From Escherichia coli (GTDB lineage: Bacteria > Pseudomonadota > Gammaproteobacteria > Enterobacterales > Enterobacteriaceae): a stretch of 64,000 nt of DNA. Within the stretch, counting starts at the first letter, position 1; each line of letters opens with the position of its first letter. The notes under the pieces were generated by a model. The model searched no databases. It was not told the origin of the DNA and worked only from the letters and a program-made list of their open reading frames with translations. The stretch lies in assembly GCF_003334385.1 (NCBI RefSeq), contig NZ_QOWN01000012.1; one strand, 5' to 3'. Positions 8,409 to 11,924 of the stretch are shown here, one piece after another. The translations under genes and the position numbers were made by a program.

Positions 8409-11400
8409 CTAAACCTGACGCCTCTCAAGACTATTATAAATAGCCTCAATCTCACCCTTCAGGTTATCACCGCAATAAACCATTGATGTATCGTATCGTT
8501 CATATCGCGCTTCCCGTGTCGCACTAAACCAGTTGAACGATCCCACACACAGCAAACCATCATCACCAATAACAATTTTGCTATGAACACGGTTTACCAG
8601 CTTTGTAGCAATACCCAGCGCATTCAGTTTCTCCAGCGCCGCTTTAAAGTTCTGCTGCTTCTCTTTTCGCTTCTCAAAATCATTATGTTCAGTGTTGTAG
8701 CTTCTGTCAGTGACTATCGTGACGTTAATTCCACGTGAACACGCCGCAATCATGGAATCAAGAAAACCGGTTTGCTCCAGCCTTTGCCAGGTCAGCCATG
8801 GAGAAATTATCGTGATGTGTTTACTGGTATTTTCAAATGTCTGATTCAGGAAATTATCATGTTGCTCCACACCATGAAGTGTGTAGATTTTGGTCCCGGC
8901 GGTTTTTAAATCCTTACGCTCTTTATAATCAAAAGAGAGCGCATTCTTCTCTGACTCAAAGAGGTATTTTGCCAGTAATCCCCGTGGCGATGAGGCTGGC
9001 TGGACCTCAAACAGGTCCATATCGCCGAAGACCAGAAAACTGTCCTTCGCACGGGAGACTGCAACATTCAGCATGCTGTTATCGCTATCAATAAACCCGC
9101 CGTCTTCATGTTTTGAATAGACTGGCGAGAATATCACAATCGCTCTTTCCGCTCCCTGAAGAGAGTGCACGGTGCCCACTGTGAGCGACTTTTCATTCGT
9201 GCCTGTACTGATACCTTGTTTGCCCAGCACCTGTTTGATAGTGGATACCTGAGCGCTAAAAGGCGTCACAATACCGACAACTTCATGAAGCGATTTACCG
9301 TAATGCGCTTCAATATTTTGCTGGTTCTCTGCCAACCAGACCGCTATCGTTTCAGCCTCAAGCAAATTATATCGACTTCCACTACTTGCCAGCTCTCCTT
9401 TACCATCAATATGGAGATACCCCATTGCGGGCATTAAATTGCTCTCTTCACGCCCTCTTTTAGGCAACAACTTACCGTGATAGCAGAGCGTATTACAGTA
9501 TCCAATAATATTGTCGTAGCACCGGCGGTGTTCATATAGGTACATACCACGAGCCAGTTCGGGATCATATTGATAGCGCGAAGCAAACTGCGCTATTTTC
9601 ATAACGCTGCCAGATGCGGCACTTTTACCAAGGTCTGCGATTGCCGTATATTTCTCGGTAATCTCTTCTTGCGTACTGCCAGACAGAATTTTTTCCGCCA
9701 GCATGTTACCGACATCAATCGCAGGAGCAATACTCCATATTGGCGGGATCTGCTCCGTATCGCCAATCACTAATGCCTTCTTAGCTAATGCAAACGAGGC
9801 AGCAGCCACTTCAGGAAGCACCTGCCCGGCTTCATCGACAATGAGTAAATCGGCAAAATCATACAAATAACTTTTCTCGAATTTACGTTGTCCTTTGTGC
9901 TCACTTATCTGCATATTGCCGGGCAGCATATAGCATGTCATCACCACACATGGAGTGAGTTTCATTCGACGTTGCCAACGGGCGGTTACCCCTTTAGCGC
10001 CTTTTTTCTTCTTCTCTTCCTGCAGATCATCAATTCTGGCCATATCCATCAGCCAACGACCTTCCCAGTAGTGAGTCGTCAGTAAAAATGCAGGGAAGCG
10101 AATCTGCGTATCAGCCAGTTCATCGGCCTGTGAGAAGCTCAGTTCCTCGTCGCCCTCATACCCTAAATCAAATGCCAGCCTCTGCCACTCCTGAACCGCC
10201 TGCTGTTCTTTAAGAACGATTTCATGGGCGGAGTCAATCTGCTGCCGGTATGTTGTTTGCTCGCGCTCAGCGGAATTGAGCAGCCCATCAATATTACGTT
10301 CGATAGTTTCAGGATCAGACCACTGATTTCCTGCAATCAGCGCGCCTAATTTATCTTCGAGAAACAGCTGTATTTGGTACTGTCGCTTATTGCGAACCGC
10401 CGGGAGCCAGGAAAATAATGAATAGATCAGTGATTCACCGGCGCGATATTTTTTCCATTCCGTTTTAGCACTCTTCAGTAGAGTGACTTTTTGTTCTTGT
10501 CCGGAAAGTAATTTATTTAAATTATCGAGATATTGCTCAATATCATTAGCAATAAGCTCACGCGCAGCCCGAATCTGGCTTAACGTTTGCCATGTTGCGT
10601 TCAGTCTTATCAGTTGCTCAGATTTTGCTGCCAACTGACCATGCAAGAGTTCAATGACCTTTTCAGGGGATGAACACTCTTTTCCAGGAAAGGCTGCCTT
10701 AGCCTTTTCCAGATAAAACAGCAGTGCATCCTCTACATACTCTTTTGACTCAACCTGGTTGAAGAAATCTTCAGTTTGATATTTTTTGGCTGCCTCAGCT
10801 TTACGACTGCTTGAGGGAAAATAAGCACCGAAGCTTTTCAGCTCTGGCAACCATCGCCCGGCCATCGCACCTGAACCTTGCGAAAAGTCTTTCCCGAATG
10901 CCTCAATAATGTTCGTTACAGCCTGGTTATTCGTTGAAGTCGCGATAATAACCGGAGGCTCAGATTTTTCGAGAGCCGCTCTGGCCCACTGCGTGGCGAT
11001 GATAGAAAGCACCAGCGTGGTTTTTCCGGTTCCCGGAGGGCCATTAACAGCAAGGATATCGCCATGTCTTGCATCCAGAAAATGGCTTAAGGCATCGCGC
11101 TGAGCCTTTGCCAGCGGAAACTTATCTCCGGAGTGTCCAAGCCTGTCGCTGAATTTTGCTCCTGGGGCCAGCAAAGACTCTGCAGCATGAACCTCTCGCG
11201 AGGCGAAGCGATTGAAGAGCGGCACATCCTTATTGCAAACAAGCAGGTGATCATAAAGAGAAAGGATATGGGAACTGGCACCGCCAGATTGAGCCGTTTT
11301 AACAATATAACCGTGCTCAGCGAGTTCATATTGCTCAGGTTTTTCAATCCAGTCGCCGGCAACGCTCTTCAGTAGCCTCTCTGAGTCATACAGATATTGA

Positions 11401-11924
11401 CGCCACTCCTGCTGCAAGGCGGCATATCGTGCTTCCCGTTCTTCATCCGTTTCGGCAGTCTTATCAACGCTGTCATCAAAGTTGATAGAGAACGTGGTAT
11501 GGGTCGTCTTGTATTTGTCATACTGCCCAATCTCACCAATCGAAAATGCTCCTTTTGGCAAAGGTTCAAGCAGGTCTCTGGGAATGGAGGTCGCTGGCGT
11601 CGGATATAAAAAACCCTCACGGCTTAGCAAGGCTGGCGTCACTATCGGGGTAACAATATCAGGCGCACCTGCAGAACGGTCCTTACCATGCTGCAGTAAC
11701 CGGAAATAAACTTTTGGGCGCAAGATGACATCGACCGTTTCGACATCGTCTTTTTCTCCCTTAAAAAATTTACTGACAATCGCTTCGTCAAGACGTCCCG
11801 CCGCTATCCCATGCCAGTGAGTGAAATTTTTGGCGTCTTTCCGTTCAAAACTGCCCTTTCCTGACTCAGCATCCGCAAGCGAGTTGCGCCAGTATGAGGT
11901 AAACCCTAAAGCATTTTCATCCAT
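8409..11924 (-). CDS. Upf1-like SF1 helicase fused to C-terminal PLD-family (single HKD) nuclease domain, 1171 aa; candidate single-gene anti-phage defense protein (type II Mokosh-like architecture)
   Basis: Walker [10 protein letters not shown] (aa 295-303), Walker [10 protein letters not shown] (aa 693-701), helicase motifs [21 protein letters not shown] / [17 protein letters not shown] (aa 916-967), PLD motif HSKIVIGDD...GSFN (aa 1114-1131); AGGA RBS upstream of ATG at 11924; sits between integrase and IS debris in the pheV island. Confidence 0.8.

Follow-up and report, generated by a model that had tools for sequence, protein, structure and literature searches.

The region of about 270 residues that precedes the Walker A motif in the protein encoded by ORF 8409..11924 is the N-terminal domain of MkoC, the protein of the single-protein anti-phage system Mokosh type II. 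The ORF was found in the window, that is, the whole stretch of 64,000 nucleotides of Escherichia coli DNA that was analysed, and its 1171 codons encode a protein of 1171 aa with a computed mass of 131.5 kDa; the gene, mkoC, and all the parts of its protein described below are on the reverse strand. RefSeq labels the product merely as "AAA domain-containing protein". With the PADLOC profile of MkoC (PDLC03924), residues 1-1169 matched positions 1-1135 of 1136 with 1690 bits and E=0. The N-terminal region taken alone matched positions 1-248 of this profile (267 bits, E 8e-80), and MkoC was the sole PADLOC family that it matched at E<=1. The original prediction had considered this region as a possibly new or variable extension of a helicase-nuclease. 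The data do not support this: the region aligns over its full length with profile positions 1-248 and with every full-length homolog examined, and it differs from the N-terminus of the characterised MkoC of E. coli SG150 at 14 of 270 positions.

As defined by Millman et al. [quoted passage not shown] The protein in the window has the same arrangement, preceded by the N-terminal domain (residues 1-268; 11121..11924). Pfam assigned AAA_11 to residues 272-491 and 679-729, AAA_12 to 777-969, and PLDc_2 to 1028-1138, leaving the residues before 271 unassigned. The helicase core is Upf1-like, as seen in the PDB profile search and in structural superposition, and its first RecA domain, RecA1, starts with a PLAxAQRDAL segment (270-279) and the Walker A motif GPPGTGKT (295-302), together covering residues 270-302 (11019..11117), where the Q-motif-like Q275, N294, and G295-T302 are invariant. 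RecA1 contains an all-helical insert of about 260 aa (residues 394-656; 9957..10745), with predicted helices at 394-411, 420-458, 462-495, 508-530, 538-586, and 597-630 in the full-length AF2 model; no part of the MkoC protein is less conserved than this insert (20% identity to homologs). Walker B, or motif II, reads DEAGQ at residues 697-701 (9822..9836), with D697, E698, and G700 invariant. The C-terminal PLD nuclease domain (residues 1011-1171; 8412..8894) holds the sole HxK(x4)D motif of the protein (H1114; 8562-8585). This nuclease and the helicase are in one polypeptide, as they are in Mokosh type II.

The MkoC of E. coli SG150 (E. coli 5-366-08_S1_C1, IMG 2586378093), also of 1171 aa and of the same single-gene architecture, is marked 'v' (validated) in the supplementary table of Millman et al. 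(2022), defence having been observed for Mokosh systems that include this one. Over residues 1-399, the part given in the supplement, 384 of 399 residues (96%) are identical to those of the window protein. The proximal upstream DNA of the SG150 native flank is similar to that upstream of mkoC in the window, but the first 50 nt of the SG150 clone were unmatched in the window and the distal flank differs. The protein named EcMokosh II in a 2025 preprint (10.1101/2025.07.10.664194) is also in agreement with ours, as its construct was split into M1-A995 and L996-end, which fits residues A995 and L996 at the helicase-to-PLD boundary here, and its monomer of 132 kDa fits the mass computed for the window protein. 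In the same study, EcMokosh II was monomeric by mass photometry, cleaved ssDNA only and nicked plasmid DNA, and protected only against the ssDNA phage printed as 'SEC 17' (SECphi17); its cleavage in vitro was abolished in a nuclease mutant and kept in an NTPase mutant (10.1101/2025.07.10.664194). The window protein is, hence, an allele of a known system, and neither a new system nor a new variant.

The window is E. coli chromosome, and several complete genomes are 100% identical to its segment 8000-12400. Among 5426 complete E. coli genomes, 889 contain mkoC, in every case on the chromosome and with identities of 96-100%. In the window, this allelic variant of the SG150 gene lies on an island, where no other cargo gene stands between it and the tyrosine integrase (12376..13638, reverse strand, from the RefSeq annotation of the identical locus). 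Beside the integrase is a tRNA-Phe gene (13836..13911, reverse strand; ARAGORN and RefSeq annotation), which is likely the integration site of the island. A scan for terminator-like structures revealed a hairpin with a 13-bp stem at 12344..12374, located just past the stop codon of the integrase gene, on the upstream side of mkoC, and thus standing between the two genes. The neighbouring genes are yqgA and speC, and the other content of the island includes IS remnants and the SigA autotransporter.

We then considered whether the region might not be a real domain, the product of a wrongly annotated start codon or of a decaying or fused upstream ORF. In some genomes, the ORF calls do start at positions 95, 234, or 251. 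Against this, most full-length homologs begin at the position of M1 in the alignments, an AGGA motif is found 6 nt upstream of the mkoC ATG, the region is under purifying selection and has a confident predicted fold, and the validated clone likewise codes for this protein of 1171 aa. Taken together, these observations effectively refute such a reading, which we regard as having practically no chance of being correct.

The original prediction placed some 285 residues without motifs before Walker A. A sizeable region of this kind does exist; however, it ends earlier, near residues 265-270, as AAA_11 begins at 272 and the PLAxAQRDAL segment at 270. We modelled residues 1-290 with AF2 using an alignment of 79 sequences and obtained a pLDDT of 86.8 and a pTM of 0.75; the model of the full-length protein gave 89.5 and 0.81, respectively, and the N-terminal secondary structure was unchanged from that of the isolated model. 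The stretch of residues 241-270 rose from a pLDDT of 66-84 in the isolated model to 90-94 in the full-length one. According to these models, the region is an autonomous alpha/beta fold of approximately residues 1-240 followed by a linker of about 30 residues (241-270), which looks like a segment that packs onto RecA1 and is ordered only beside the helicase. The predicted order of elements is a helix (3-21), a beta-rich subdomain (22-131; 11532..11861), a helix (132-141), an acidic and poorly conserved loop (142-159), a long helix (160-192; 11349..11447; DSSP H160-192/194 in the AF2 models), a hairpin (199-209), two helices (217-230 and 235-241), and the segment 241-270.

Conservation was examined by aligning 41 full-length sequences and 79 N-terminal ones, and the alignments extend over the entire region. 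Three residues (G104, R116, and P121) are invariant, some 30 positions reach a conservation of >=80%, and Y11, W12, R13, D18, R102, D136, W174, Y224, and L236 are conserved at 89-99%. The conserved motifs of the domain are YWRxxLxD (11-18), RP (69-70), RxG (102-104), RDLLEP (116-121), LYD (223-225), and RLGHS (261-265). The beta-rich subdomain holds the invariant R116-D-L-L-E-P121 motif (11559-11579) as well as the Pro/Thr-rich stretch remarked upon in the original prediction, the string ending in YPTPATSIP, which corresponds to residues 87-115. The stretch is indeed present, but the region as a whole is not rich in these residues, with 13 Pro and 14 Thr in residues 1-270 and a pI of 5.5. We rejected the possibility that the stretch is a low-complexity linker, since beta-strands are predicted within it at 95-101 and 105-108 and it is among the better-conserved parts of the domain, with P88, P93, R102, G104, R116, and P121 at 91-100%.

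The motif-less character of the region was borne out by the searches with residues 1-270, which returned no Pfam match even at E<=10 and no NCBIfam or PHROG match at E<=1. In sequence and profile searches of the PDB, the matches were confined to the helicase and PLD parts of the protein with none in the N-terminal region, and no solved Mokosh structure was found. The literature mentioning Mokosh calls the helicase "N-terminal", and we found in it no discussion of the N-terminal domain of MkoC. We conclude that this is a family-specific, uncharacterised domain of a known defence protein.

An exhaustive phmmer search against 1.84 billion representative proteins found the domain in 250 representative clusters. 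Among the 150 clusters listed, the match begins within the first 30 residues in 133; in the other 17 it begins at residues 32-107, and those of them that cover the start of the domain have additional residues at the N-terminus. Full-length proteins in the listed clusters have 1114-1282 aa, and all the long ones are helicases or helicase-PLD proteins. With Foldseek against AFDB50, 144 matches were obtained at E<=0.001, of which the best 50 listed are all relatives or fragments of the helicase(-PLD) family, and the distant matches listed include Paenibacillus and Parabacteroides proteins with 20-23% identity and TMq of 0.66-0.75. Every sequence or AFDB match listed for the domain is, in fact, a relative or a fragment of the MkoC-type helicase family. 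A homolog search with the remainder of the protein, residues 272-1171, gave a list made up entirely of near-identical proteins from E. coli.

The PLD domain is absent from 12 of the 46 long relatives that have the N-terminal domain, and these proteins end after the helicase, at about position 972 of the MkoC profile. Three PLD-less relatives were inspected, and each is a complete ORF in the interior of its contig. The genes downstream of them are unrelated and vary between contigs, and no separate PLD gene was found beside any of the three. Because these 12 relatives keep the N-terminal domain together with the helicase and lack the nuclease, we consider that the domain goes with the helicase rather than with the nuclease.

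Regional differences in variability were assessed as identity of 41 full-length homologs to the window protein, dN/dS among 11 E. coli alleles, and the share of variable columns among close alleles. The N-terminal domain showed 32% identity, a dN/dS of 0.30, and 31% variable columns; the corresponding values were 52-61%, 0.04-0.17, and 12-20% for the RecA cores, 37%, 0.19, and 19% for the PLD, and 20%, 0.20, and 29% for the helical insert. Thus, the domain is under purifying selection, yet the weakest among the regions measured (0.30 versus 0.04-0.20 elsewhere). The polymorphism is uneven, as residues 131-200 hold 16 of the 28 positions of the domain that vary among the 11 E. coli alleles, and the long helix 160-192 and the acidic loop 142-159 are its most polymorphic parts.

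These data bear on whether the domain could be a sensor or specificity module for the trigger, as the original prediction suggested. In such a case, it would recognise a phage protein, a nucleic-acid structure, or a modification and release an autoinhibited nuclease, and the alleles would tune the phages that are seen. The dN/dS of the domain and its share of variable columns are the highest of all the regions, and of the 15 differences from SG150 MkoC within residues 1-399, 14 are in residues 1-270 and 1 is in 271-399. The N-terminus of the distant MkoC of Bacillus megaterium does not align with the domain (in hhalign, the alignment starts at residue 264); the Bacillus-type N-terminus, used as a query in a word-indexed search, returned one fragment, and the B. 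megaterium protein was tested by Millman et al. (2022) and is marked 'x' in their supplementary table. Moreover, among the matches listed, no homolog of the domain was found outside the family, such that it could carry a family-specific function, and it is kept with the helicase where the PLD is absent. However, the dN/dS of the domain lies far below 1, and both its fold and some 30 positions are conserved across Proteobacteria, Firmicutes, and Bacteroidetes, unlike what is seen in certain defence proteins, whose sensor domains are hypervariable. The polymorphism, besides, is clustered in one loop and helix (131-200), off the conserved face, and purified EcMokosh II cuts ssDNA without any phage factor (10.1101/2025.07.10.664194). 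The sensor function is thus a possibility that we take seriously and still think unlikely. The expectation that the N-terminus is the variable part of the protein holds in its dN/dS of 0.30, its 32% identity against 52-61% for the RecA cores, and the unaligned B. megaterium sequence, but the domain is common to the MkoC family, and it is the variable part of MkoC only mildly.

A different role is suggested by the comparison with the Upf1-like SF1B helicases, for which we considered Upf1/Nam7, SETX/Sen1, IGHMBP2, Dna2, ZNFX1, Aquarius, and MOV10L1. In Upf1 and IGHMBP2, domain 1B with its stalk helices occupies what we take to be the same position, with the same order of elements, as the N-terminal domain of MkoC. 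These elements lie over the nucleic-acid channel and tune binding. The order predicted for MkoC, with a helix at 3-21, strands within 22-131, a helix at 160-192, and RecA1 from about 270, would be compatible with that of a 1B domain, a beta-barrel that stands right before RecA1 between two stalk helices. On the other hand, residues 1-270 gave no match to a 1B-domain family in Pfam at E<=10, and the superposition of the domain on a solved Upf1-like 1B domain showed no detectable similarity. The superpositions of the full-length model on Upf1-like structures covered 475-550 residues, which corresponds to about the two RecA cores alone, and hhalign against IGHMBP2 aligned only residues 690-974, with the N-terminal domain outside. 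The region before Walker A in MkoC is also some 80 residues longer than that in IGHMBP2 (295 versus 213), and the helical insert of MkoC, located where Upf1 has domain 1C, comprises about 260 aa as against roughly 55 aa for that domain. We therefore infer the link to domain 1B only from position and from the order of secondary-structure elements.

With this in mind, the best explanation overall would be an accessory or gating role of the N-terminal domain in the helicase that controls the cutting by the PLD; we propose it tentatively, as it falls somewhat short of an even chance of being right. The domain would belong to the helicase module and not to the nuclease, and would assist the helicase in loading, clamping, or gating single-stranded nucleic acid, a role we propose because of the position and element order it seems to have in common with domain 1B of Upf1 and IGHMBP2. 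Through such gating, the domain may control the timing of cleavage by the C-terminal PLD. An acidic pI of 5.5 would be unexpected in a nucleic-acid clamp and speaks against this part of the proposal.

The nuclease itself imposes a further consideration. The MkoC nuclease differs from the PLD nucleases Nuc, NucT, Zucchini (PLD6), and BfiI in being fused to a helicase. In Nuc, Zucchini, and BfiI, one active site is built from two HKD motifs. Since MkoC has just one HKD motif and the purified protein is reported to be a monomer, cutting probably requires two MkoC molecules to meet on one phage ssDNA or RNA, and the N-terminal domain may influence their meeting. A figure legend in the study of EcMokosh II groups the protein with the systems whose cleavage is confined to 1 uM; the main text, in conflict with that legend, has it active at every concentration tested, and this contradiction weakens the argument for dimerisation (10.1101/2025.07.10.664194). 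As a primary role, an oligomerisation domain was rejected since purified EcMokosh II is reported to be monomeric (10.1101/2025.07.10.664194).

The single HKD motif and the reported monomer would also be in agreement with an intramolecular regulator or scaffold. The domain would then dock on the PLD or on the helical insert and hold the nuclease monomeric and inactive until the helicase engages its substrate, making no contact of its own with nucleic acid or phage factors. The pTM of 0.81 of the full-length model suggests a fixed packing between domains, and the NTPase motif is dispensable for cleavage in vitro yet required for defence, which implies regulation in vivo. However, the retention of the domain in PLD-less relatives means that its conservation is independent of the nuclease, and we consider such a regulator improbable.

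Mokosh type I offers a further comparison. It consists of two genes instead of one; MkoA has a related helicase core, its profile matching residues 692-994 of the window protein, and MkoB has a related PLD (profile match to residues 1011-1138). Unlike MkoC, the MkoA protein carries a Ser/Thr kinase domain (Millman et al., 2022), and neither the PADLOC searches, in which MkoA was not matched by the N-terminal domain at E<=1, nor Pfam, which shows no kinase domain in residues 1-270, relate the N-terminal domain to it. A link of Mokosh type II to MOV10L1 and Zucchini, two piRNA proteins of animals, has been drawn in the literature.

Whatever its role, the N-terminal domain makes up about a quarter of the MkoC protein, and it is conserved and confidently folded without resemblance to solved structures. 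In a bolder version, which we hold to be doubtful, this fold unseen in solved structures would decide what Mokosh type II recognises, be it ssDNA replication intermediates, a phage protein, or the pairing of two single-HKD molecules, and the differences among close E. coli alleles, concentrated in this domain, would tune the range of phages. Mokosh type II is common in E. coli. The finding does not amount to the discovery of a new system; it is a useful pointer for those who study Mokosh.

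Among 46 long relatives possessing both the N-terminal domain and the helicase of MkoC, 12 (about a quarter) have no PLD nuclease, and these proteins stop at approximately position 972 of the 1136 in the MkoC profile. They are found at the contig loci L012 (4592-7678), L015 (288-3218) and L016 (143-3160) and among the database proteins P0099, P0101, P0105, P0109, P0127, P0148, P0171 and P0204. The three PLD-less relatives that we looked up are complete ORFs followed by unrelated genes, and no separate PLD gene was seen beside them; a search of Pfam and PADLOC with the 209-aa ORF downstream of the relative on L012 (7686-8315) gave no match. 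The PLD-less relatives could represent Mokosh-like systems whose effector has been swapped or that have decayed. The PLD-less MkoC relative on L014 is flanked by IS elements and lies downstream of a region (1612-4975) with an ART-PolyVal (ADP-ribosyltransferase) gene and an 899-aa ORF that had no Pfam match; a nucleotidyltransferase/HepT-like gene pair is also located nearby, and these surroundings may constitute a defence island.

In PLD nucleases such as Nuc, Zucchini and BfiI, one active site is built from two HKD motifs. In MkoC, the sole HxK(x4)D motif extends from H1114 to D1121 (window 8562-8585, minus strand). Since the purified E. coli protein, EcMokosh II, is reported to be a monomer (10.1101/2025.07.10.664194), the single motif, together with the two-motif requirement of these nucleases, would imply that MkoC dimerises upon binding its substrate. 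Within RecA1 of the helicase, a predicted all-helical insert of about 260 aa with six long helices (residues 394-656; window 9957-10745, minus strand) occupies the position of domain 1C of Upf1; no other part of MkoC is less conserved (20% identity to homologs).

Natural disruptions of the N-terminal domain occur: mkoC (window 8409-11924, minus strand) is interrupted by IS3, ISEc52 or IS1B in some complete E. coli genomes (search matches H26, H32 and H45), and protein databases include ORF calls with a shortened N-terminus, which are 1077, 938 and 921 aa long and start at residues 95, 234 and 251, respectively.

Between the integrase gene and mkoC, directly 3' of the integrase stop codon, there is an inverted repeat whose 13-bp stem contains nine G-C pairs (window 12344-12374). 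This hairpin is probably the terminator of the integrase gene, and mkoC would therefore have its own promoter, predicted within 11925-12340. In the part of the island next to mkoC (window 2081-8200), traF is truncated and there are several fragments of IS66 and IS3. A published study describes Mokosh II and type IV restriction as co-localised (10.1101/2022.08.21.504612). Near mkoC, in the same island, lies sigA (window 2081-5938), which encodes a serine-protease autotransporter toxin; thus, a virulence gene and a defence gene are carried on one island beside the tRNA-Phe gene.
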